Assembly: GCA_041497195.1 (NCBI GenBank)
Contig: JBGQGB010000005.1
Span: 9,243 to 73,242, forward strand
Source: Candidatus Doudnabacteria bacterium
Lineage (GTDB): Bacteria; Patescibacteriota; Doudnabacteria; UBA920; 2-01-FULL-46-14
Length of the DNA stretch: 64,000 nt
Direction of reading: 5' to 3'
Below are positions 12,705 through 64,000 of the stretch, one piece after another. The notes below the pieces were generated by a model. The model worked only from the letters and a program-made list of their open reading frames with translations. It was not told the origin of the DNA and made no database searches. Every line of letters begins with the position of its first letter. Position 1 is the first letter of the stretch. Position numbers and translations under genes: made by a program.

Positions 12705-14168
<1,464 letters not shown>

Positions 14169-14587
14169 AAGGATCGTCCAAAAATCAAAGATTTTCGAAC
14201 ATCCTAATTGGCTCAAGCCTGTCCTCCAAAACTCCCCGAGGAGAGTGAAGGACGAATAAATGAGCTAGCGACAGATATTTTTTACCTTTCGATTTCACTC
14301 AAGGTAACCCTGAGCGAAGTCGAAGGGTTATAATGGTCATCTGTCAAAAACCATCCAAAATCAATTGGAATTGACGCGTAATTGACCCTGCTTCCGAACT
14401 TGACGAACGGAACCAGGGTTTCCTATCACTATTCAGTTGCCAAAGAACTTTTGCCTTGTTTAAGCTCCAAAAGATACAAAAAACACGCGATCCAAAGCGT
14501 GTCATATCCCCCGAACACACGAATTTCTTAGGAATTGCTTGCGACTTTTGTCTCCTTTTAAAAAAGCTTAATAATTAAGGCTCCTTT

Positions 14588-36720: not shown

Positions 36721-38781
36721 ATGGAGTTCATTTCTGCAGTGATTTACGCAGCCCTGATCGGACTGGGCCTGCGGCGGTTCGTATGGTTTCGTCAAAGCGT
36801 TGGTGATTATGTCGTTGGCGCGAGGGATTACGGCATAGTCGGCGCAACCCTGACATGGCGCTGGACCAGGCAGTTTCTCATCTGCCTAGTTGTAGTCGCC
36901 ATGTTTTTCCTCGGCCTCCTGACAATGGCAATTCTCTCTGGCAACGAACTCTTTTTGCTGGGAGTCCTGCTTCTGGAGGCGATCCCAGTGTTTTTTGCAG
37001 CCCTTACTCTCCACATCTTGCGGCGACCGCTTGCCGAGTCAGGGAAGTTGCTTCGCGAGAACGGAAACTGGCTGCGTAAAAGCATGGGCAACGGCATCAA
37101 GTTGTTCAAGCTGGAGAGTGCCAAGGTTGGCGAGATGAAAGTGCTGGACGCAATCGAGTATCTTGCCAAGTTTGGCCTAAACCTCGGCATAAGCGTGCTA
37201 AACGGTTTTTATCTTCTGCTTGCTCTTCCGGTCAAGCTGACGGGTGGTGCAATCGAGGTCATCGGTCGGCTCGTTGAGTCAGCCGAAAAACCCGCGCGCT
37301 GGTTTGCAAGACTCCTCGCAGGTCTTTCACTCACTCTCCTCTTCCTCACCGCTGTGGCTATCTGGGATTTGCAGTATGACCTGGGCATACTCAAAGATCC
37401 TCTGGTCATCGGTCTCGTAAGCCTCATCGCCATGGTGTCGATCACCCTCGGAATCTTCGCGGGGGATGCCTTCAGCGGTGGAGCACGCAAATCCCGGAGT
37501 CCTGCTTTTTACGGAGGATTTGCAATCCTGCTTCTGGGTACTGTTCTCGCTAGTCGAATCTTCCCCAAAATTTCCAATGGGGTCGTATATATAATTGAGA
37601 ACGGACACACGGCGGCAGTACGTACCATCAGGGCTCTGGGTCTTCGTAGTGATGCGACGGACGATATTTTTGTCCGCGCGAGGTTCGCCACGAAGATTCA
37701 ATATCAAGCAAAATCTGACGTACTATCCGGCAAGGTCCAATGGGAAAAGATCGAAACCCCAGAGATTCCGATAAACGCATGCGGGGTAGTCGTCCGACCA
37801 AAGGATCGCGCCGAAAAAACAGGTACTCGCCGAGCCATGGTTGAGGTCTACTGGGCAACCCCGGAGGATCCCGACCTGGTCTTGGTGGATACCAAAATCC
37901 AGTCAGGCCGAGCCGAAACCAGATGGGTACCTGACGACTGGGTTGAGAAGATCGACGGGAGATGCAGTTACTCCCAGCCGCTACCTCCTCAGCCAGTTGC
38001 TAGTCTCAAACCTATCTGGTTGACACCGCAAATACCTGTCTCGCCACCAGGCGCAGCAGTACTGCCAGCAGACGTGGCCGGGATGGTTCAAGCGGCAGCT
38101 GCGAAAAACGGCGCGCCACTGGACCTCATGACCGCGATCTGCGTCCACGAGTCGGGATGCAATCTCAACGCTCCCGACGGCCGCAATGGCGAGATCTGCG
38201 CTATGCAGGTCAAGCCAGACACGGCGAGGCAATTCGGGACAGAGCCACAATCGCTTCGCAATCCAGAAGTTTGCTTTGATACTGCAGCCAGAATCTTGGC
38301 CAAGTATCAGGCAGACTACGGGATGAAGCGAACCGATCTCGTGGCCCTCGCATACAATGCCGGCGCTGGCACTGCGGACAAGTATCTCAATGTCCCGTGG
38401 GGCCAAGTTCCGGCAGAAGCACTACGTGGAGTGAATGCGCAAGGCGTGCCTTACGATGCCTACGCATATACAAACGCTGTGTTGGGGATTCTGAGCCGGG
38501 GGGGCGGACAAGTATTTACTGCCCGAACCAACCACTCAACAGCAAGCATAGTCACCGTGGCCTGGGTGATTAATAACAGGCCCCAGCCGATTCTGGTCTG
38601 CCATTCGAGGGACCAGGAAGGTGACTGCAGTACTATACCGCCTGGCAAAGGGTGGTATGGCAGTGTCGGCGCCGAGCTCCGGGAAGGAGAACGGCTCACA
38701 GTCAAAGACACAGGGGGAAATATTCTCCGTGTCGTCACGCTGTCTGACGAGCTCTCGTCAGGCGGCAAAGTCTATATCTAA
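36721..38781 (+). CDS. polytopic membrane protein with C-terminal lytic transglycosylase (SLT) domain and a terminal beta-rich domain
   Basis: About 8 N-terminal TM helices; SLT catalytic region LMTAICVHESGCNLNA ... AMQVKP ... LVALAYNAGAGT. Confidence 0.7.
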   Translation: MEFISAVIYAALIGLGLRRFVWFRQSVGDYVVGARDYGIVGATLTWRWTRQFLICLVVVAMFFLGLLTMAILSGNELFLLGVLLLEAIPVFFAALTLHILRRPLAESGKLLRENGNWLRKSMGNGIKLFKLESAKVGEMKVLDAIEYLAKFGLNLGISVLNGFYLLLALPVKLTGGAIEVIGRLVESAEKPARWFARLLAGLSLTLLFLTAVAIWDLQYDLGILKDPLVIGLVSLIAMVSITLGIFAGDAFSGGARKSRSPAFYGGFAILLLGTVLASRIFPKISNGVVYIIENGHTAAVRTIRALGLRSDATDDIFVRARFATKIQYQAKSDVLSGKVQWEKIETPEIPINACGVVVRPKDRAEKTGTRRAMVEVYWATPEDPDLVLVDTKIQSGRAETRWVPDDWVEKIDGRCSYSQPLPPQPVASLKPIWLTPQIPVSPPGAAVLPADVAGMVQAAAAKNGAPLDLMTAICVHESGCNLNAPDGRNGEICAMQVKPDTARQFGTEPQSLRNPEVCFDTAARILAKYQADYGMKRTDLVALAYNAGAGTADKYLNVPWGQVPAEALRGVNAQGVPYDAYAYTNAVLGILSRGGGQVFTARTNHSTASIVTVAWVINNRPQPILVCHSRDQEGDCSTIPPGKGWYGSVGAELREGERLTVKDTGGNILRVVTLSDELSSGGKVYI

Positions 38782-38885: not shown

Positions 38886-39251
38886 CTAAACCACACCCAA
38901 GGTCAAAGCATTGGCAATCACGCGGACAATCACGAAAGACAAGATCACGATGACAATACCGATGATGGCATGGGTAATGGTCAGTTTGGCTGCCTCAGCT
39001 TGTTCCTCATTGCCGTGCGCAGTCACATACCGAAACCCGCCGATAATCACGTACAAGACTGCCACCAGTCCGACTACAGCCAGGAGAATATTAATGATAT
39101 AGATGATCAGCATCGTGGCAGTCAAAGAGCCGGCTGGCCCGAAGAAACCGATGACCCAGGGGACCGGGACCGGGCCAGTTCCCGGGGTGACCACGCCTAC
39201 CAGCACAGAGGCTGGAACCGATTTTTTGATTTTTTGGAAAAGTTTTGCCAT
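38886..39251 (-). CDS. VirB2/TrbC-topology pilin-like small membrane protein, paralog 1
   Basis: Shares the C-terminal module IIGGFRYVTAHGNEEQAEAAK-TITHAIIGIVIVILSFVIV with six neighbours. Confidence 0.6.
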   Translation of the reverse strand: MAKLFQKIKKSVPASVLVGVVTPGTGPVPVPWVIGFFGPAGSLTATMLIIYIINILLAVVGLVAVLYVIIGGFRYVTAHGNEEQAEAAKLTITHAIIGIVIVILSFVIVRVIANALTLGVV

Positions 39252-39254
39252 GGT

Positions 39255-39665
39255 TTAGGGGACTCCAGTTACCAAAACGTTTGTGACGATTGTGATGACC
39301 GCAAAAGACAGAATCACAATAACCAATCCGACCACGGCCTGCACCATCATTTTCTTGGCTGCTTCCGTGGCTTCCTCGTTGCCTGCCGCAGTCAGATAGC
39401 GAAACGCCCCGATAATCAAAAAGAGCACTGCCAAGGTCCCGACAATCAGGAGGGCGATGTCCAAAATCAAAGTCGTGATATTACCAAAAGTCGTGCTGCC
39501 GGCCGGACCAGAGGCGCCGTTTAAAGGACAGGGTACTCGGACGAAAGTGCTGCCGCCAACATTACAAAAACCTGCCGCTGCCTGAACCTGCGGTACCATC
39601 ATCAGGAACAAAAAAACCGCAGACAAGATTAGAAAACTGATTCCCCCGAAATAGCCTCTGCTCAT
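39255..39665 (-). CDS. pilin-like paralog 2 (signal peptide plus IIGAFRYLTAAGNEEATEAAKK module)
   Basis: Signal peptide MSRGYFGGISFLILSAVFLFLMMVPQVQAAAG; conserved module. Confidence 0.6.
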   Translation of the reverse strand: MSRGYFGGISFLILSAVFLFLMMVPQVQAAAGFCNVGGSTFVRVPCPLNGASGPAGSTTFGNITTLILDIALLIVGTLAVLFLIIGAFRYLTAAGNEEATEAAKKMMVQAVVGLVIVILSFAVITIVTNVLVTGVP

Positions 39666-40060
39666 AGTCCGAGCCCTCCCGTGCCTTGCAGTAACACTGA
39701 AGAAATAATCTGCACGATGGCAAAGGACAAAAGCACCACCACCAGACCAATGATTGCACCAGTGATGGTTTTCTTGGCTGCCTCAGTTTGCTCTTCATTG
39801 CCATGGGCGATGACGTAGCGATAGCCGCCAATGATCAACCACACTGTGGCCACAGTCCCCACCACAATCAGTAAAATTTGTACGACAAGTAACGCCAAGC
39901 TCCCCAAGGTATTAGCTCCGGCCGGGGAACCAGACCCGGCGCCAAAGGCTGGCCCGAGATTCTGGAAAGTGGGGGAATTGATCCCTGACTGGGCCAGATA
40001 AATAGCTGAGAAATAGCTGCCGATTTTCGCGACTGAATTGGCAATTTTATTTTTGTGCAT
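39662..40060 (-). CDS. pilin-like paralog 3 (IIGGYRYVIAHGNEEQTEAAKKTIT)
   Basis: Conserved module; ATGA overlap with paralog 2. Confidence 0.6.
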   Translation of the reverse strand: MHKNKIANSVAKIGSYFSAIYLAQSGINSPTFQNLGPAFGAGSGSPAGANTLGSLALLVVQILLIVVGTVATVWLIIGGYRYVIAHGNEEQTEAAKKTITGAIIGLVVVLLSFAIVQIISSVLLQGTGGLGL

Positions 40061-40203
40061 ACATCAGGTGAGCGAGCTCACCATAAGCCGATTGAGTACG
40101 CCACTTCAAAGTCCAAAAATATGGAACAATTTGGAGGCGTACTCAATCAGAGCCTACATAGGATTGTCTTTTTTTAAAAAAGGATTGCCGCTGACAAATG
40201 AGT

Positions 40204-40578
40204 CTAGACTGTATTGCTGATCAGAGCATTGGCAATCACACGGACGATCACGAAAGACAAGATTATAATCACGATACCGATGATGGCATTGGTGATGGTC
40301 TTTTTCGCTGACTCGGATGATTCTTCATTGCCACCGGCGGTGATGTAGCGGAACCCACCAATGATCAGAAAGACGACAGCGACCAAGCCCGCCACAGCCA
40401 AAAGAATCTGAATGACGGTGAGCAAGATCTGGGAAAAGCTGGCCTGATTCGGCAAGTTCGTGCCAGTCGAATTCGGCACATTAAACTGCGCCCCGGCGGT
40501 AAAGGGCATCAAGGCCAGACTCAACATGGTCACTATGGTCAAAACATTCGCGATTTTAATCAGATTGTAATTTCTCAT
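40204..40578 (-). CDS. pilin-like paralog 4 (IIGGFRYITAGGNEESSESAKKTIT)
   Basis: Signal peptide ending AGAQF; conserved module. Confidence 0.6.
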   Translation of the reverse strand: MRNYNLIKIANVLTIVTMLSLALMPFTAGAQFNVPNSTGTNLPNQASFSQILLTVIQILLAVAGLVAVVFLIIGGFRYITAGGNEESSESAKKTITNAIIGIVIIILSFVIVRVIANALISNTV

Positions 40579-40688
40579 TTTATTTCAAGTATCCCTAAAT
40601 TAATGGCTAAATAACCTCGACCTGGTTACGTGTAAATGTAAGGTTTAACTAGCTGAACCAATTATCAACAACTGAACCAATTATAGTA

Positions 40689-41081
40689 TTACGAGGGCTG
40701 TGTCGTCAAAAGCGTATTCACAATCGACACAATCGCGTAGGCCATCACGATAATCACGATGCCGATTATGGCGCTAGTGACAGTCTTTTTGGCTTTCTCC
40801 ATAGCCTCTTCATTGCCGCGGGAGGAGACATACTGAAAGCCTCCAATCATCAGAAATACTACCGCGATTGCTCCGGCAAAAGTCAGAAGTGTCAGCACAG
40901 CCTTAGCCAATAAATCACCAAAATTATCAATATGAACCAGGTAGTCTGGAGCCGGGTTTTGGATTGCCCCGGGCGTTCCGACATTGCCAGTGCCAGCGGC
41001 GGCTGGCAGAGCTGCAAACAAACTCACTAACAAAACCAGGACAGAGGAAATGAGAGCAAAAAATTTTATTTTTTGTTTCAT
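40689..41081 (-). CDS. pilin-like paralog 5 (MIGGFQYVSSRGNEEAMEKAKKTVT)
   Basis: Signal peptide; conserved module. Confidence 0.6.
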   Translation of the reverse strand: MKQKIKFFALISSVLVLLVSLFAALPAAAGTGNVGTPGAIQNPAPDYLVHIDNFGDLLAKAVLTLLTFAGAIAVVFLMIGGFQYVSSRGNEEAMEKAKKTVTSAIIGIVIIVMAYAIVSIVNTLLTTQPS

Positions 41082-41087
41082 GCGATT

Positions 41088-41735
41088 TTACGAAATTAAA
41101 AACTTTTGCACTGAACCGATGATGGTATAAGCTAGGATGCTGGCGGCAAAGCCAATGACTGACCAGCGCAAGCCGCTTTTCGCTTTCTCCACTGCTTCTT
41201 CATTGCCGGCGGATGTGACATACCTGTACCCATAATAAACAATCATCAAAATCGTGGCAAATCCGAGGATGCCCAAAAAACTAGTCATCACGAAAACCAA
41301 TACGTCAATAAAACTGGCCGAGTTGCCTGCGCCCCCGATATTGACCGGATTTTGCAAAGTATTGGTGGGAGCCGTGCTGGGCTGCTGAAAACCCAAAAAT
41401 TTGGCCACCCCGGAAACAATGGTATAAGTCAGGAGTGCGACCACGAATCCCCCCACCGACCAGGTCAAGCTCCTTTTCGCGGTTTCCAGCCCTTCCTCAC
41501 TCGTGGCAATCACAATCTTGAATCCGCTGAACACGCTAAAAGCGATCGCAATGGTACCGATGAGCAGGGCAAACCCGGCAATGACTTTGGTGATGAGCCC
41601 TGCTGGATCATTAACACTGATAAAATTGAGGGGATTGTCCAGGTTGGTGGCAGCCTGAGCCATCTGATCGCCGAATAAAAAAACCAGGACTAAAAAAGCT
41701 TCGAGAGTGAGAAATAAAAGTATCAACCTTTTCAT
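41088..41735 (-). CDS. pilin-like paralog 6, internally duplicated (two tandem copies of the TM-GNEE-TM module in one 215-aa protein)
   Basis: Motifs ATSEEGLETAKRSLT and SAGNEEAVEKAKSGL each flanked by hydrophobic helices. Confidence 0.6.
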   Translation of the reverse strand: MKRLILLFLTLEAFLVLVFLFGDQMAQAATNLDNPLNFISVNDPAGLITKVIAGFALLIGTIAIAFSVFSGFKIVIATSEEGLETAKRSLTWSVGGFVVALLTYTIVSGVAKFLGFQQPSTAPTNTLQNPVNIGGAGNSASFIDVLVFVMTSFLGILGFATILMIVYYGYRYVTSAGNEEAVEKAKSGLRWSVIGFAASILAYTIIGSVQKFLIS

Positions 41736-41759
41736 AGTTTGTCTTTGCCGATTACCCTC

Positions 41760-42203
41760 TCAGGACCAACAGCTAGAATTTGGTAGATAAATGCATTGTG
41801 GATCCCACCACGGCCGCGTTGCTCCGGCTTTGCCAAACAGCCCGTTGACTAGCAAGTTCACAAACACAAAGGCCAAAACAATTATGGCAAACCCCACGAC
41901 TGCGTTGGACAGGCCGGTTTTGGCTTTTTGAATTTTTTCCGCATTACCGAGGGCGATAATGAGATTGAATCCGCTGGTCAAAATATAGTACATGGCCACC
42001 AAAGCGGCCACGGAAATGAGATAATTAATCACGATAATTATCATGGAAATCAGGTCCGGAAAGGTACATTGAGTGACTGTCGCAACGTGCGTAACTGGAT
42101 CAACCACCTCCTGCCCGCAAGGCACGAGCGCCGCATGGCTCAGGGCCGGAACCATCAATAAACCTAGTCCAATCACAACTAGACTAACCAAAAAATATTT
42201 CAT
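41760..42203 (-). CDS. pilin-like paralog 7, divergent, with four Cys (LGNAEKIQKAKTGLS module)
   Basis: Signal peptide; divergent module; Cys pairs near the N- and C-termini. Confidence 0.5.
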   Translation of the reverse strand: MKYFLVSLVVIGLGLLMVPALSHAALVPCGQEVVDPVTHVATVTQCTFPDLISMIIIVINYLISVAALVAMYYILTSGFNLIIALGNAEKIQKAKTGLSNAVVGFAIIVLAFVFVNLLVNGLFGKAGATRPWWDPQCIYLPNSSCWS

Positions 42204-42211
42204 AGATTTTT

Positions 42212-43525
42212 TTATTGGTTTCGCAGTAATAAATTAATTTTTTGGACCGCGGCATTGACCGCGTCTGCAGGCACGACATTGTGGAGAATGACATTGTCAA
42301 TCATCTGCAAAAACACTGACTCAATCGCATTGCTATCCGGCTTGTAAACACTTTTGGCAGTCAGGGCATTTTCCGCAAATATTCCGATGTCCGGATCAGA
42401 GATCTGTTTTTCGATGATGTCTTTGCGGGGCGAGGCTTGTTTTTGGACTTCGTAGTATTTAGTGAGGACATTTGACTGCGTGATGAATTTCAGAAAAGTC
42501 CAAGCCGCCTGGGTATTTTGGCTTTGCTTGGAAACTCCCTGCCCCCAGTAATTCGCGAAATTTATTTTGTTTCTGACCGAGTCAATCTGCGGCACCGGCG
42601 CGATGCCATAATTCAAAAATGGCGCTTTGGCCGCCAGGGTCGGCCGCAAATACGAATAAGAAAAAATCATGGCCACTTTTCCGGCGGCGAAAGCTTCAAT
42701 CGAATTGTTACTCTGGCTGTTCCAAGTATACGTCACTTTGGCCGGGTTCGCGAACTGAGTGTAAAATTCCAGCGCGCGCGCCGCTGGCGAAAAAGGATTG
42801 CCTTTATCATCCGTCAAGTTTTGTCCCATCGCCGAGTTGTTGAAATCCGGAGAATAAAATTGCGTTCCGTTCTGGAGCATCAACAGCTCCAAAATGTCCG
42901 GAGCGCGGTTGACGTTATCAGAGGTGCCCAGGGCGACCGTGCTTCGCAAAAAATTACCCTGGTTGTCCTGCCTGGTGATTTTGGGAACCATATTCACCAG
43001 CTCTTCCCAAGTAGCCGGCGAGCGAGCGATTCCGGCGGAAGACAAAATGTCTTTGTTGTAGTACAGGGTCAGTACGTCCAATCCCAACGGAACCGCATAG
43101 ACTTTGTCATCTGAAACAAAATCAGAAATGGCGACTTCCACAAAATTTTGCTGATAATCTCGGAGGCTGAAAATGCTTGTCGGCGCCGGAGCGAGTTTGT
43201 CTTTGTGTTTTGGCAGCCAATCGTTATGGATGGCAAAAATGTCGGGTCCCTGACCGGCGGCTAGAGCATCGATCAATTCTTCCTCATAAGTATCGACGTT
43301 TTTCTGAACATAGTGAATGTGGGTTTTGGGGTTGGCTTTCTGAAACGCGTCGATCAAAGGCTGGACAACAGACTGATCATCAAACGGCTGCCACCAGGTC
43401 AAATCAATCTCCTTGCCTCCCGCTTTGGAAGGGCCGCCCAAATTGCAGGATTGGGCAGTGAGTGCCACTGCCAAACAAAGGATGAAAAGTTTTCCCGCGA
43501 TTTTTTGTTTGTTTTGATTGAGCAT
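42212..43525 (-). CDS. ABC transporter substrate-binding lipoprotein (carbohydrate family 1)
   Basis: Lipobox LTAQSC, SBP_bac_1-like length and pattern. Confidence 0.7.
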   Translation of the reverse strand: MLNQNKQKIAGKLFILCLAVALTAQSCNLGGPSKAGGKEIDLTWWQPFDDQSVVQPLIDAFQKANPKTHIHYVQKNVDTYEEELIDALAAGQGPDIFAIHNDWLPKHKDKLAPAPTSIFSLRDYQQNFVEVAISDFVSDDKVYAVPLGLDVLTLYYNKDILSSAGIARSPATWEELVNMVPKITRQDNQGNFLRSTVALGTSDNVNRAPDILELLMLQNGTQFYSPDFNNSAMGQNLTDDKGNPFSPAARALEFYTQFANPAKVTYTWNSQSNNSIEAFAAGKVAMIFSYSYLRPTLAAKAPFLNYGIAPVPQIDSVRNKINFANYWGQGVSKQSQNTQAAWTFLKFITQSNVLTKYYEVQKQASPRKDIIEKQISDPDIGIFAENALTAKSVYKPDSNAIESVFLQMIDNVILHNVVPADAVNAAVQKINLLLRNQ

Positions 43526-61715: not shown

Positions 61716-62259
61716 GAATAATTAAGCATGACTTACGACTTCCTCTCAAATTCCATGAGGAGCGAGAGATAGTGCTTTTAGGTATCTGCATCAATCCAAG
61801 ATGTCGCGAGGGGAGGTATCTTTCCATCTGAAAGGATGATGCGGTTTATTGCATCAAAGTAAAATCCTTCCGGCGTCGCTAGAAAAAGCCACGCGACAGT
61901 CCAGTACTCGCGCACTTTGGCAAAAAGCGATGATAACCAAAACGTGCGCGGGTTCCTCGAAAAGATTGGTTCGAACTTCCGGCTCGCCGCACGGCGGCTC
62001 GATTTTTCCTACACGAACGATTGGATTGTACTATCCGAAAACGACGAACGATTTAATTGGCGGTGACGATGTCCACAACTTTGAACCGAAAGTGCGGCTC
62101 AAATTCGAGAATCTTGATAAAAGTATACAGGAATTAAGACGAATTTATAAGGTTCATCCAGAATGGTTTGAAACACCTAAACCAAAGTCGGATAAGGGTA
62201 AAAACGTCGTAGATTATTCTGTTTTATCTTAGAACTCCACCGCGAGCGGTAAATCCTTG

Positions 62260-62661
62260 TCAGGCTAAAATTTTTCTCTCGCCAAGATAATTCTTCGTTA
62301 TGAACCCAGTCTCGCCCGTAATCTTTGCAACTTGATATGAACTCTCGACAGAATCAATAACAAAGTCGAGACTGTAGAACGATGAAATCGCAATCATTAT
62401 GTCAGTGATGGGCACACTACTCTTAAACGTTCCTCGTTCATCGTCTTTCTCGATTTCAAAAAATTTTTCACTTTCGATTAACTCTTTCAGATGACCATCC
62501 TTAATTCTTCGATCCTGAATATCACACTTTTTAACTTTCCATCCTGCATCTTTTAGCCTTTTTTCTATAGTTGAAGTATCTACTAGGATTGTGACCCACA
62601 AATGTCCCATCATGAGTCGCACGCAATTTTTTGCTGACAAAGGCATAACAGAGTAAGGCAC
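62260..62661 (-). CDS. hypothetical protein (possible start at MMGHLW)
   Basis: ORF only; AT-rich; lies within the decayed element region. Confidence 0.35.
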   Translation of the reverse strand: MPYSVMPLSAKNCVRLMMGHLWVTILVDTSTIEKRLKDAGWKVKKCDIQDRRIKDGHLKELIESEKFFEIEKDDERGTFKSSVPITDIMIAISSFYSLDFVIDSVESSYQVAKITGETGFITKNYLGERKILA

Positions 62662-62695
62662 AATATTGCGAGTAAATTGTCCGTTTTCCTCGTAG

Positions 62696-64000
62696 AAACT
62701 CTCTTGGAACCCGGATCGTCTCGCCAGAAATTCTATAGACGGAGGACAAATTATTTATCTCTTGGACACAGGAAAGATTAAAGATTTGAAATTTCCAACA
62801 CATTGGTTTGAAAATACTCCCCAAGGAAAATTCATGCTAAACATTGCCTTTGGGCAAAGCAAATATTATGTTGATAATCTTTCAGAAAACATCAAACGTG
62901 GACATAGAGCAAAACTTCGCAAAGGAATTTGGCCTAGCTTTGCCCCGCTTGGTTATGTGAACAATCACAAGACGAGAGATGTTGACCTTGATACTGAAAA
63001 AGCTCCGCTAGTCCGAAAAGGTTTTGAGTTATACGCAACAGGTAAATATACACTGAAGCAGATTGCAAGAGCGTTGAAAGACCTCGGACTGCGGAGCTAC
63101 AAAGGCAATGTTCTTGCAGTTTCCTGTGTCCAGAGAATTTTGAAAAGCACTTTTTACTATGGAATTTTCGAGTTCAAGGGCGAGATGCATCAAGGTTCGC
63201 ACGAGCCGTTGATTTCAAAGAAACTTTTTGATAAATGCCAAGAAGTGATGAAAGATCGCGGACATATTAAAACGAGAAAAGCAGAGAACACTTTTCCATT
63301 TCGCAGATTACTCACTTGTGGAGAATGTAGTTGTATGATTACCGCCGAAACACAGAAGGGGCATAACTATTATCGTTGTACTAAAAAGAAAAGTGCTTGT
63401 TCACAAAAATATGTCCGCGAAGAATTACTAACCGAACAAGTGAAAAGTTTTCTTCAAAAAGTTTCTTTGCCAAGCCAAGACACCGAGAAAGTTTTGTGCG
63501 AGCTGGACAAGGACGAGCAGAAAGCTAGGGAGAATAGTAAAGTTTTCGTAGAAAATCTCAAAAGTGAGTTAGCTGATGTTGAAGTACGGTTAGACAAATT
63601 GCTTTCTGCCTATCTCGATGAAGTAATCACGTCAGAAGAATATGCCGCGCAAAAACAAAAAATGCTCGACCAGAGAGTAGAGCTTAAAGAGAAAATCACT
63701 GAAATTGAAGACAAGGGTGTGTCTTGGCTCGAACCGGCTCGTGCGTGGGTTAAATCCTTGAATCAGGCGGAGAACTTGCTTGAGAGTGGGGATAAATCGG
63801 AAATGACAACATTTCTAAAACAAATCGGCTCGAACCATATTTTGATTGATAAATCCTTTTCCTTTTCGCCCAAAAAGTCCTTTCAAATCCTATGCGAGCG
63901 GCGCGTTCCGCGCCGCGAGGTTGAGCTTTCTTTCTTGCAAAATTCCAATTGGCGGTGTGTATTGAACGAAGTTCGAATGTATTTTGAATTGAATCCTGAC
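62696..64000 (+). pseudogene. large serine recombinase (resolvase/recombinase/zinc-ribbon type), N-terminal catalytic region interrupted by two in-frame stops; 3' end runs off the window
   Basis: Downstream frame reads ...DRLARN..., the recombinase domain and a C4 zinc ribbon (CGECSCM...YYRCTKKKSAC) with no stop before 64000; upstream in the same frame FFADKGITE-TAA-GTILRVNCPFSS-TAG-KLSWNPDRLAR; no catalytic Ser motif recognisable. Confidence 0.55.

Follow-up and report, generated by a model that had tools for sequence, protein, structure and literature searches.

Seven consecutive small genes on the minus strand of a Candidatus Doudnabacteria contig raise the question of what their products are, and whether these products act on their own or together with a type IV secretion system (T4SS). 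The genes lie in a 64-kb stretch of DNA, referred to below as the window (the whole stretch analyzed), and were originally predicted to encode proteins with the topology of VirB2/TrbC pilins, possibly a stand-alone repertoire of pilus or adhesin subunits rather than a part of a full T4SS.

Gene arrays of this kind have been described in Patescibacteria, namely, 4-6 VirB2-related proteins with signal peptides in Saccharibacteria in 2018 (10.1101/258137), six PF18895 genes (SEML1_0014-0019) located beside T4SS genes and all essential by Tn-seq in 2023 in Southlakia epibionticum, a cultured relative that needs them to live on its host cell (PMC10633639), and 441 arrays of 2-11 genes from 383 assemblies in the 2025 catalogue of Quinonero-Coronel et al. 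(PMC12102498). In the catalogue, an array required two or more genes for pilins of PF04956 or PF18895, either in tandem or one non-pilin gene apart, and the identity between array members averaged 25%, with a maximum of 54%. Of the 3,035 Patescibacteria assemblies in the same study, 2,407 have VirB4, with MPF-FATA affinity, and so does the single genome of the GTDB class Doudnabacteria among the entries listed. The study also raised antigenic or host-range variation by analogy with Bartonella and Anaplasma; its main text mentions neither positional orthology across species nor a link to a solute-binding protein (SBP). No filament built of PF18895 proteins is reported in the cited literature, and a 2025 review goes no further than the "potential to elaborate conjugative pili". 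Since such arrays have already been published, the one analyzed here is a new example of a described feature and, as such, of modest interest.

Organization of the array and the shared hairpin module

The array occupies positions 38886-42203, and the number, strand, tandem order and outer limits of its genes in the list of open reading frames (ORFs) are exactly those originally given. Spacers between the seven genes range from -4 to 143 nt. In the order of transcription, the genes are:

41760..42203, minus strand: p7, 147 aa, opens the array; PF18895 26.6 bits, equal to the gathering score
41088..41735, minus strand: p6, 215 aa, two modules; PF18895 52.7 bits, in two stretches
40689..41081, minus strand: p5, 130 aa; PF18895 42.0 bits, PF04956 29.6 bits
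40204..40578, minus strand: p4, 124 aa, candidate major subunit; PF18895 48.7 bits
39662..40060, minus strand: p3, 132 aa, 4-nt overlap with the start of p2; PF18895 39.2 bits
39255..39665, minus strand: p2, 136 aa, N-terminal Cys pair; PF18895 36.9 bits, NF045849 41.3 bits
38886..39251, minus strand: p1, 121 aa, last gene, short N-terminal hydrophobic region; PF18895 37.9 bits

In each product, an export signal at the N-terminus precedes a short extracytoplasmic segment that is particular to the paralog and a hairpin of two hydrophobic helices, whose conserved charged loop reads R-Y-x-T-A-x-G-N-E-E...A-K-K. The signal peptides look canonical, with AxA-type sites, in p2, p4, p5, p6 and p7; the hydrophobic region of p1 is shorter than in its orthologs, so that its export signal looks weakened, and the signal of the p3 group is weak across all orthologs and species aligned. 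The cleavable-looking signal peptide ascribed to all seven proteins is thus clear for five of them only. The loop motif is likewise shared in part: G-N-x-E and A-K are invariant in all seven paralogs, whereas the longer pattern IIGG[FY]RY..GNEE..KK is strict in p1, p3, p4 and p5, incomplete in p2 and p6b, and degenerate in p7, which has GNAE.

Pairwise identity between the modules of the paralogs ranges from 23 to 68% (mean 40%), compared to a mean of 21% for the mature N-terminal regions, in agreement with the hypervariable N-termini noted originally. Full-length identity to p1 is 27-53% across the array members, and the best repeat pair in the array is formed by p1 and p4, whose C-terminal 195 nt are 75% identical. 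The internal duplication of p6 is borne out by its two PF18895 stretches, by the alignment of the first module (residues ~41-120, which have lost the G-N) with the other modules, and by an AF2 model (pLDDT 80.8) with two hairpins, formed by helices 44-76/80-113 and 142-174/179-214. The AF2 model of p4 (pLDDT 83.9) consists of a signal-peptide helix (2-28), a linker and a hairpin (48-80/85-121), so the predicted helical hairpin is found in both proteins modeled; the helices of the two models have a pLDDT of 85-95, and in the hairpins it exceeds 90. In p7, the signal peptide is followed by a Cys-containing N-terminal region, the hairpin module and a Cys-containing C-terminal tail. The four cysteines reported for this protein are present, and three of them are kept in orthologs, in the contexts LVPCG, C.F and WWDPQC, the fourth being not conserved. 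The original prediction missed the Cys pair of p2 (FC...VPC), which is kept in 6 of 7 aligned orthologs and absent in that of locus L020.

Assignment to the T4SS pilin family

All seven proteins reach the gathering score of the Pfam family PF18895 (T4SS_pilin; 26.6 bits), with scores of 26.6-52.7 bits and E values from 6e-6 to 5e-14, far beyond chance, and the contig's precomputed Pfam annotation gives the same assignments; the T4SS pilin family named in the original prediction was the correct one. The architecture of the family, an N-terminal signal followed by a hydrophobic two-helix hairpin with a short polar loop, is found throughout, with the signal weak in p1 and p3. In the TrbC/VirB2 family (PF04956, gathering cutoff 27.9 bits), p5 alone passes (29.6 bits) and the other six proteins are absent at E<=0.1; many p4 orthologs carry a precomputed PF04956 match that passes or approaches the model. 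The NCBIfam model NF045849 (Mbov_0395 family pilin-like conjugal transfer protein; 80 positions, cutoff 40 bits) matches the hairpin in all seven proteins (E 1.6e-16 to 5e-4), with p6 (59.7 bits) and p2 (41.3 bits) above the cutoff, and p1, p3, p4 and p5 (32.5-36.6 bits) and p7 (19.8 bits) below it. Homologs are labeled "pilin" by NCBI.

Profile-profile similarity to the Agrobacterium-type VirB2 is insignificant, and neither profile-profile nor structural comparison linked the proteins to experimentally characterized pilins; the hairpin is a generic fold of membrane proteins, for which the Foldseek matches include ATP-synthase subunit c, and both the fold searches and the profile comparison are uninformative. 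The class III signal G/[FM]xxxE, the prepilin-peptidase site, is absent from all seven N-termini, and the Pfam output for the seven proteins includes no pilin (type IV pilus type) or N_methyl family. Genuine type IV pilus genes (T2SSE, T2SSF) are encoded elsewhere on the contig. With seven tandem genes of low identity and relatives in Patescibacteria, the locus agrees with the published description of VirB2-like pilin arrays (PMC12102498), and, judged by sequence, it is a VirB2-like "T4SS pilin" array (PF18895) from a member of the Patescibacteria (CPR) close to Candidatus Doudnabacteria.

Conservation of the paralogs across related loci

For comparison, 77 related loci were collected, all from Patescibacteria metagenome-assembled genomes mostly labeled Doudnabacteria. 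The order p7-p6-p5-p4-p3-p2-p1 is common to seven related genomes, with clear best-hit margins and 50-63% identity, and the arrays of most related loci begin with a gene for a p7-like protein. Full-length alignment was possible for 38 orthologs of p6, and the two-module gene is always the second one in close relatives. For p4, 459 homologs were found at E<=1e-5, with full-length alignment at 57-72% identity. The comparison of copy numbers proposed originally shows 4-8 same-strand pilin genes in nearly every locus with enough sequence, and a fixed array size of 5 or 7 in close relatives. The N-termini vary between paralogs, yet stay conserved inside each ortholog group, where paralog-specific motifs are kept: LVPCG...C.F in p7, FC...VPC in p2, PVPVP...GPAG in p1 and NPAP..LV in p5. 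By these alignments, the seven paralogs are of ancient origin and occupy the same positions from species to species, and the two-module gene is a conserved member of the array.

Promoter-like site and spacer repeats around p4

Three features flank p4:

40680..40709, minus strand: sigma-70-like promoter upstream of p4, TTGACG-18-TATAAT, best match (11/12) in an 8-kb scan
40653..40684: two copies of a 13-bp direct repeat, at 19-bp spacing, that overlap and follow the -10 hexamer
40090..40148, minus strand: 13-bp perfect inverted repeat in the p4-p3 spacer, 33-nt loop, predicted stable RNA hairpin

Both repeats had been noticed in the original prediction and lie at the places given there. The direct repeat, CTGAACCAATTAT, is present at 40653-40665 and 40672-40684 and nowhere else in the window (0.12 matches expected); its second copy falls in a 22-nt insertion relative to locus L026 and is thus a lineage-specific tandem duplication. 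The inverted repeat consists of 13-nt arms, GATTGAGTACGCC/GGCGTACTCAATC, at 40090-40102 and 40136-40148, and is likewise unique in the window (0.05 expected). The 156-nt spacer that holds it folds at -50.4 kcal/mol (z = -4.98); no T-run follows the hairpin, and its sequence is not conserved in L026. The p4 ortholog of L026 has the same promoter hexamers and spacing upstream, and a site matching at least 10 of 12 positions precedes p4 in only 3 of 8 genomes (the window and two of the seven relatives). The full-length conservation of p4, its own strong promoter-like site, the best of the region, and the stable hairpin downstream suggest that p4 may be the major subunit.

Gene neighborhood and the search for secretion machinery

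The array belongs to a minus-strand run of genes with short spacers, in which it stands behind an SBP gene; the locus as a whole is a housekeeping block, ComM-GalU-SBP-array-(variable)-FtsH-RNase III-SMC. The two genes that bear on its function are:

42212..43525, minus strand: SBP (family 1, maltose-binding-like), 437 aa; PF13416/PF01547, E 1e-32
36721..38781, plus strand, convergent with the array: 686-aa membrane protein with a C-terminal SLT lytic-transglycosylase domain (PF01464, 47.8 bits)

The end of the SBP gene is 8 nt from p7, and the closest solved relatives of its product are sugar or maltose binding proteins. Of 60 related loci, 50 have an SBP gene directly before the array on the same strand, and 57 do if one small ORF may intervene; by this recurrence the SBP is a partner conserved upstream of the array. 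Among the about 50 large ORFs of the window, none encodes an ABC permease or ATPase. The identities of the SLT protein, ComM and LspA, which had been named as neighbors of the array, are confirmed; as a conserved partner, however, the SLT protein does not hold up, with a homolog adjoining the array in 1 of 77 related loci (L014) and an SLT domain in only 2 of 96 downstream ORFs, including that of the window itself. A role of this protein as a VirB1-like helper is possible.

As originally noted, VirB4 and VirD4 are lacking: no VirB4, VirB6, VirD4/coupling protein, PrgI or relaxase was found among the ~50 large ORFs of the window, and precomputed Pfam tables list none of the T4SS core families in the ~7-8 kb of contig that flank the window on each side. 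The same holds for the relatives, as the 96 ORFs that follow arrays in Doudnabacteria-type loci include no match to a T4SS family, and no such locus has a T4SS core gene within 10 kb of the array. The VirB4-centered arrangement, in which pilin genes lie near virB4, virB6 and prgI/virB3, is not seen at this locus; it is found in L058, L071, L072 and L074, which come from other classes of Patescibacteria and in which same-strand genes of the TrbL/VirB6 (up to 38.9 bits), PrgI (42.4 bits) and VirB4 (P-loop_TraG ATPase, E 3e-31) types follow the array. The full GalU-SBP-array block is present in L058, L071 and L072; upstream of the L074 array, an SBP homolog was not found. Because this block precedes VirB6-like, PrgI/VirB3 and VirB4 genes elsewhere, and VirB4 is so widespread in Patescibacteria assemblies, the suggested stand-alone pilus without a full T4SS appears less likely.

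Proposed function and alternative explanations

The explanation that we favor, with a probability of roughly 60%, is a VirB2-like pilin array whose products are assembled by a T4SS encoded elsewhere into a heteromeric surface filament or conduit, with p4 as the major component. The proteins would be exported by Sec and adopt a membrane topology in which the two termini lie outside and the loop lies inside, from where a VirB4/VirB6 machine encoded elsewhere in the genome would extract and assemble the subunits. The product would be a surface filament or a conduit spanning the cell wall that operates during contact with a host bacterium. Most of it would be supplied by p4, and each of the other six proteins would have a fixed role as a minor subunit, at the tip, at the base or in priming, similarly to minor pilins.

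The neighborhood also lends itself to an explanation without a pilus, in which the hairpins form a hetero-oligomeric ring or channel in the membrane that works with the SBP, for example, in uptake or sensing of host sugars, independently of a T4SS in this lineage. Its arguments are the SBP gene directly before the array in 50-57 of 60 loci, the lack of an ABC permease or ATPase in the window and of T4SS core genes within 10 kb in any Doudnabacteria-type locus, the generic hairpin fold shared with ATP-synthase subunit c, and the unreported status of PF18895 filaments. Nevertheless, we regard such a channel as unlikely, given that the SBP-array block is joined to VirB6, PrgI and VirB4 genes in other classes, that the S. 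epibionticum array lies beside T4SS genes with no SBP between and is essential together with them (PMC10633639), and that the similarity to TrbC/VirB2 and to the mycoplasma ICE "pilin-like conjugal transfer proteins" holds at the family level. That the genes encode unrelated small membrane proteins with two helices, such as holins, bacteriocin or immunity proteins, or lipoproteins, the matches against which the original prediction had been set, is hardly credible: the curated PF18895 threshold is reached by all seven proteins, even with a cutoff of E<=0.1 there is no match to a holin, bacteriocin or lipoprotein family, housekeeping rather than phage or bacteriocin genes surround the array in the window, and homologous arrays are embedded in T4SS operons.

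The paralogs could, finally, be interchangeable versions of one surface subunit, with N-termini diversifying against recognition or for different host strains, as was suggested originally and in the catalogue (PMC12102498). The mature N-terminal regions are indeed the most divergent between paralogs (21% versus 40%) and the more variable part within p4 orthologs as well, with a major-residue frequency of 0.58 compared to 0.81 in the module; furthermore, in four independent assemblies the sequence breaks off within p4, possibly because of strain heterogeneity. This antigenic variation is contradicted by the same-position ortholog that each paralog has, by clear margins, in seven other species, as old paralogs with kept positions argue against a fast-varying repertoire. 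The N-terminal motifs and cysteines conserved per ortholog group, the fixed array size and second place of the two-module gene in close relatives, and the absence of truncated or silent cassettes and of long near-identical repeats (75% over 195 nt in the best pair) point in the same direction and make it quite improbable that the array serves as such a repertoire.

Comparison with known systems

Type IV pili and type II secretion pseudopili, with their unrelated fold and biogenesis and a class III signal that the array proteins do not have, offer an analogy only, that of one abundant subunit encoded together with conserved, non-interchangeable minor subunits. The Mbov_0395/MMCAP2_0565 pilin-like protein of mycoplasma ICEs is similar in the NF045849 match over the hairpin and in the context of conjugation in a monoderm, in line with the MPF-FATA affinity of VirB4 in Patescibacteria (PMC12102498), although 5 of the 7 array proteins score below the cutoff of this model. 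In mycoplasma ICEs, the pilin-like conjugal transfer gene is single and is not known to form arrays.

Classical VirB2/TrbC/TraA pilins (PF04956) have a similar size, a signal peptide, two hydrophobic helices and a short polar loop. After leader cleavage, they form a polymerized extracellular pilus with bound phospholipid, and TrbC and VirB2 are cyclized. The loop motif G-N-E-E...A-K-K is, in contrast, specific to the Patescibacteria family, and several paralogs share the locus here, in an uncultured, ultrasmall organism presumed to be monoderm, whereas classical systems have one gene: in seven MPF_T plasmid operons, a single virB2/trbC lies directly upstream of virB3 and, in 5 of the 7, directly downstream of a lytic-transglycosylase gene (VirB1). 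The homologous arrays of other classes resemble these operons in adjoining VirB3, VirB4 and VirB6 genes.

The closest counterparts are the arrays of the same phylum, including SEML1_0014-0019 of Ca. Southlakia epibionticum ML1, that of TM7x and the 441 catalogued ones. The array described here differs from them in that it adjoins no T4SS core gene and includes a conserved two-module member, and from the S. epibionticum locus in the SBP gene upstream; it shares with them the PF18895 family, the tandem same-strand genes for proteins of ~115-150 aa with a signal peptide and a hairpin, the low identity between members, and the chromosomal location without a relaxase.

Results

Organization of the array and architecture of its products

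The seven consecutive minus-strand genes of the original prediction were recovered in the list of open reading frames (ORFs) with exactly the predicted outer coordinates. They are designated p7 to p1 in the order of transcription and follow a gene for a family 1 maltose-binding-like solute-binding protein (SBP).

Genes of the array and its flanks, with spacers to the next gene in transcription order
42212-43525, minus strand, SBP; 8 nt to p7
41760-42203, minus strand, p7, 147 aa; 24 nt to p6
41088-41735, minus strand, p6, 215 aa; 6 nt to p5
40689-41081, minus strand, p5, 130 aa; 110 nt to p4
40204-40578, minus strand, p4, 124 aa; 143 nt to p3
39662-40060, minus strand, p3, 132 aa; 4-nt overlap with p2
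39255-39665, minus strand, p2, 136 aa; 3 nt to p1
38886-39251, minus strand, p1, 121 aa
36721-38781, plus strand, membrane protein with a lytic-transglycosylase domain (SLT protein), 686 aa, convergent with the array

All seven proteins belong to the T4SS_pilin family (PF18895) and have in common a module of about 75 residues at the C-terminus, a hairpin of two hydrophobic helices joined by a charged loop; G-N-x-E and A-K of this module are invariant across the alignment. Identity among the paralogs is 23-68% (mean 40%) in the module and averages 21% in the short N-terminal segments of the mature proteins. The predicted internal duplication of p6 appears in the alignment as two modules, the first of which has lost its G-N. 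AlphaFold2 models built on deep alignments consist of a signal-peptide helix, a flexible linker and a single helical hairpin for p4 (pLDDT 83.9) and of two hairpins for p6 (pLDDT 80.8). Cleavable signal peptides had been proposed for all seven proteins; a clear export signal was found in five and not in the other two. A conserved cysteine pair in p2 adds to the cysteines noticed before. Compared with its orthologs, p1 has a hydrophobic signal region that is shorter by about 15-20 residues, and no upstream extension is possible because its ATG lies 3 nt after the stop codon of p2, so export of p1 may be impaired.

The NCBIfam model of the Mbov_0395 family, pilin-like conjugal transfer proteins of mycoplasma integrative and conjugative elements (NF045849), is matched by all seven proteins, two of which exceed its cutoff. 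VirB2-like pilins have been stated to be absent from monoderm MPF-FATA systems (PMC12102498); the NF045849 matches suggest that the hairpin protein may have come along with monoderm-type machinery. Direct homology to the Agrobacterium-type VirB2 could not be demonstrated: when hhalign was used to compare the pilin profiles with seven VirB2/TrbC sequences taken from MPF_T plasmids, the probabilities were 2-4%. In the PDB, neither the seven-paralog profile nor p5 had any sequence match other than designed repeat proteins and a GPCR, all with E>0.01. With p6 as the query, an exhaustive search recovered 6,777 representative sequences at E<=1e-3, many of them with two modules and some with up to seven. 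Some PF18895-like polypeptides carry 3-7 hairpin modules (P0169, P0175, P0176, P0221 and others; one has 820 aa and 7 matched stretches) and may be genuine pilin concatemers or else products of read-through gene calling.

Positional orthology across related loci

A genome scan with one genome per species, seeded with a four-paralog alignment (that of all seven being too divergent as a seed), identified 77 related loci, all in Patescibacteria MAGs, the majority labelled Candidatus Doudnabacteria. According to an HMM of the module, nearly every locus with enough sequence has 4-8 same-strand pilin genes. The order p7-p6-p5-p4-p3-p2-p1 is kept in seven genomes, one with eight pilin genes and the others with seven, where the best window match of each gene is the paralog in the same position, at 50-63% identity. 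Arrays of five genes consist of p7, p6, a variable gene, p4 and another variable gene, in that order; the first gene is p7-like in most loci, and the two-module gene p6, of which 38 orthologs were aligned, is second without exception in close relatives. Since the ortholog alignments reveal conserved motifs and cysteines specific to each paralog, the N-termini, which differ between paralogs, are kept within ortholog groups.

Among the more distantly related loci (L028-L083), several members of the arrays (e.g. L046:7954-9537 and L077:5961-7520) have apparent N-terminal extensions of 250-530 aa before a single C-terminal hairpin, lengths that depend on unrefined ORF starts and are possibly overestimated in some cases; their layout looks as though the pilin module served as an anchor for large surface domains. 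The window sequence corresponds to positions 12,821-76,820 of contig JBGPJQ010000005.1 in MAG GCA_041485525.1 and recurs in several metagenome assemblies. Four assemblies (L003-L006), independent and each from another sample, match it with 100% identity, and every one of them stops inside p4 (40309-40389); no long exact repeat that would explain the breaks was found. Strains may differ in the p4-to-p1 half of the array.

Spacers and a promoter-like site upstream of p4

When 8 kb were scanned for sigma-70-like sites, the best-scoring one, TTGACG-18-TATAAT, was immediately ahead of p4. In the relative L026, the p4 ortholog is preceded by an identical site and a conserved leader block of 21 nt; of eight genomes, no more than three (the window and two of seven relatives) have a site matching at least 10 of 12 positions ahead of the p4 gene. 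The leader block, TAACCnGGTCGAGGTTATTTA (40608-40628, minus strand), is kept at 20 of 21 positions in L026, the rest of the spacer having diverged, and may be a 5'-UTR regulatory element. Both spacer repeats of the original prediction are present and are absent from the rest of the window. The 13-bp direct repeat and the -10 hexamer overlap. Relative to L026, the second copy of the repeat is contained in a 22-nt insertion, which rules out a conserved operator and identifies the repeat as a recent, lineage-specific tandem duplication. In the p4-p3 spacer, the inverted repeat is the basis of a very stable predicted RNA structure (-50.4 kcal/mol, z = -4.98). It is not a canonical intrinsic terminator, being followed by no T-run and not conserved in sequence in L026. 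The promoter-like site, the stable RNA structure and full-length conservation together make p4 the best candidate for the major subunit.

Gene neighborhood and the solute-binding protein

The array is part of a conserved block, ComM-GalU-SBP-array-(variable region)-FtsH-RNase III-SMC. The operon-like linkage with the SBP gene is nearly constant: of 60 loci with enough upstream sequence, 50 have this gene directly before the array in the same orientation, and 57 do if one small ORF is allowed. No ABC permease or ATPase is encoded within the window. The SLT protein, ComM and LspA are located beside the array as predicted. The SLT protein is not a conserved VirB1-like partner, since its homolog adjoins the array in one locus only. 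For the majority of the 96 ORFs downstream of the arrays in Doudnabacteria-type loci there was no Pfam match, and for none was there a match to a T4SS family.

The surroundings in the window are otherwise housekeeping genes (16S rRNA, NusA, ClpP, RNase Y, SMC, RNase III, FtsH, RecA and FtsK). The full-length 16S rRNA gene (12706-14170, minus strand) stands alone, with no 23S or 5S rRNA detected across the 64 kb at Rfam gathering thresholds. On the same contig, about 3-6 kb before position 1 of the window, genes of the type IV pilus or T2SS type for an ATPase (T2SSE) and a platform protein (T2SSF; L087:16324-18832) indicate that the organism also has an unrelated T4P system. At the high end of the window, GC falls to 0.40 (about 62000-64000), and two serine-recombinase genes and an HTH gene are found there and just past it (L084:3681-8954); this end is possibly an integrated mobile element.

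Relation to the T4SS core

The array heads a T4SS operon in four loci that belong to other Patescibacteria classes (L058, L071, L072 and L074): directly downstream and in the same orientation come two TrbL/VirB6-like genes and a PrgI/VirB3 gene, with an additional gene for a VirB4-type ATPase in L071 and L072. The GalU-SBP pair is upstream in L058, L071 and L072; the SBP gene also precedes the first pilin gene in loci that have VirB6, PrgI and VirB4 genes downstream. The lineage of the window keeps the array and its upstream partners at this site, minus the core genes: as predicted, no VirB4 or VirD4 ATPase is encoded in the window, nor is a VirB6, coupling protein or relaxase, and the same holds for the adjoining contig, over about 7-8 kb in each direction. 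A protein search with the VirB4 of L072 gave at least 7,999 matches, and none of the 120 matches listed is labelled Doudnabacteria; a literature search for Doudnabacteria and VirB4 found nothing. VirB4 has been reported in 2,407 of 3,035 Patescibacteria assemblies, and pilin genes lie apart from virB4 in about 40% of the genomes having both (PMC12102498); in a part of the table of that survey, the only genome of the GTDB class Doudnabacteria is marked 'Yes' for VirB4.

Discussion

In the mechanism that we propose, the proteins would be exported by Sec and inserted into the membrane as hairpins with the charged loop inside, then extracted and assembled by a VirB4/VirB6 machine encoded elsewhere, with p4 as the major subunit and the remaining paralogs as fixed minor subunits. 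The product would be a heteromeric filament or a wall-spanning conduit for host contact. Divergent N-termini on a common module had suggested an antigenic-variation repertoire, a reading disfavored by the orthology data: each paralog is old, has a fixed place in the order and is conserved in its own right, which argues for a heteromeric structure. Also disfavored is the notion of unrelated small membrane proteins, given the family membership of all seven. The hairpins might instead stay in the membrane, in a complex acting together with the SBP, an explanation compatible with the linkage of the two and with the lack of core genes in the window; we regard it as unlikely, if worth keeping in mind.

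The heteromeric pilus can be extended to a bolder reading, to which we assign, as one joint claim, a probability of only about 0.15. The SBP and the paralogs would form a single conserved module, 'SBP + heteromeric T4SS pilus', in which the maltose-binding-like protein is displayed on the filament or works at its base, for recognition of host-surface glycans or capture of host-derived sugars; the module would be genetically uncoupled from, or even independent of, the VirB4/VirB6 core in the Doudnabacteria-like lineage, with the two-module p6 and the Cys-bearing p7 as fixed adaptor subunits. If this is true, the Patescibacteria T4SS is an organelle of host contact and nutrient acquisition, not a secretion or conjugation device.

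Patescibacteria account for much of the bacterial diversity that is still uncultured and apparently live attached to other microbes. Their unusual T4SS with its pilin array is among the few systems genetically shown to be essential for this lifestyle. The comparison narrows the question of what this T4SS builds or moves: besides favoring a heteromeric structure, it identifies a subunit with two hairpins and a first subunit bearing Cys residues as conserved members, a sugar-type binding protein as the near-constant operon partner, and an array separable from the ATPase and channel genes. All four points are concrete hypotheses, testable in genetically tractable Saccharibacteria.

Pilin arrays of this kind have been in the literature since 2018 (10.1101/258137). 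In 2023, six PF18895 genes adjoining T4SS genes of Southlakia epibionticum were each found to be essential for epibiotic growth (PMC10633639), in 2025 a catalogue of 441 arrays of 2-11 genes across the phylum was published (PMC12102498), and a review grants such systems the 'potential to elaborate conjugative pili'. The array in the window is therefore a further example of a known system, not a new kind. In the cited literature on such arrays we found neither positional orthology with conserved two-module and Cys-bearing members, nor the SBP partner (whose link to the array the 2025 survey does not mention in its main text), nor the separation of the array from the core genes in this lineage; these are useful refinements of the known system.
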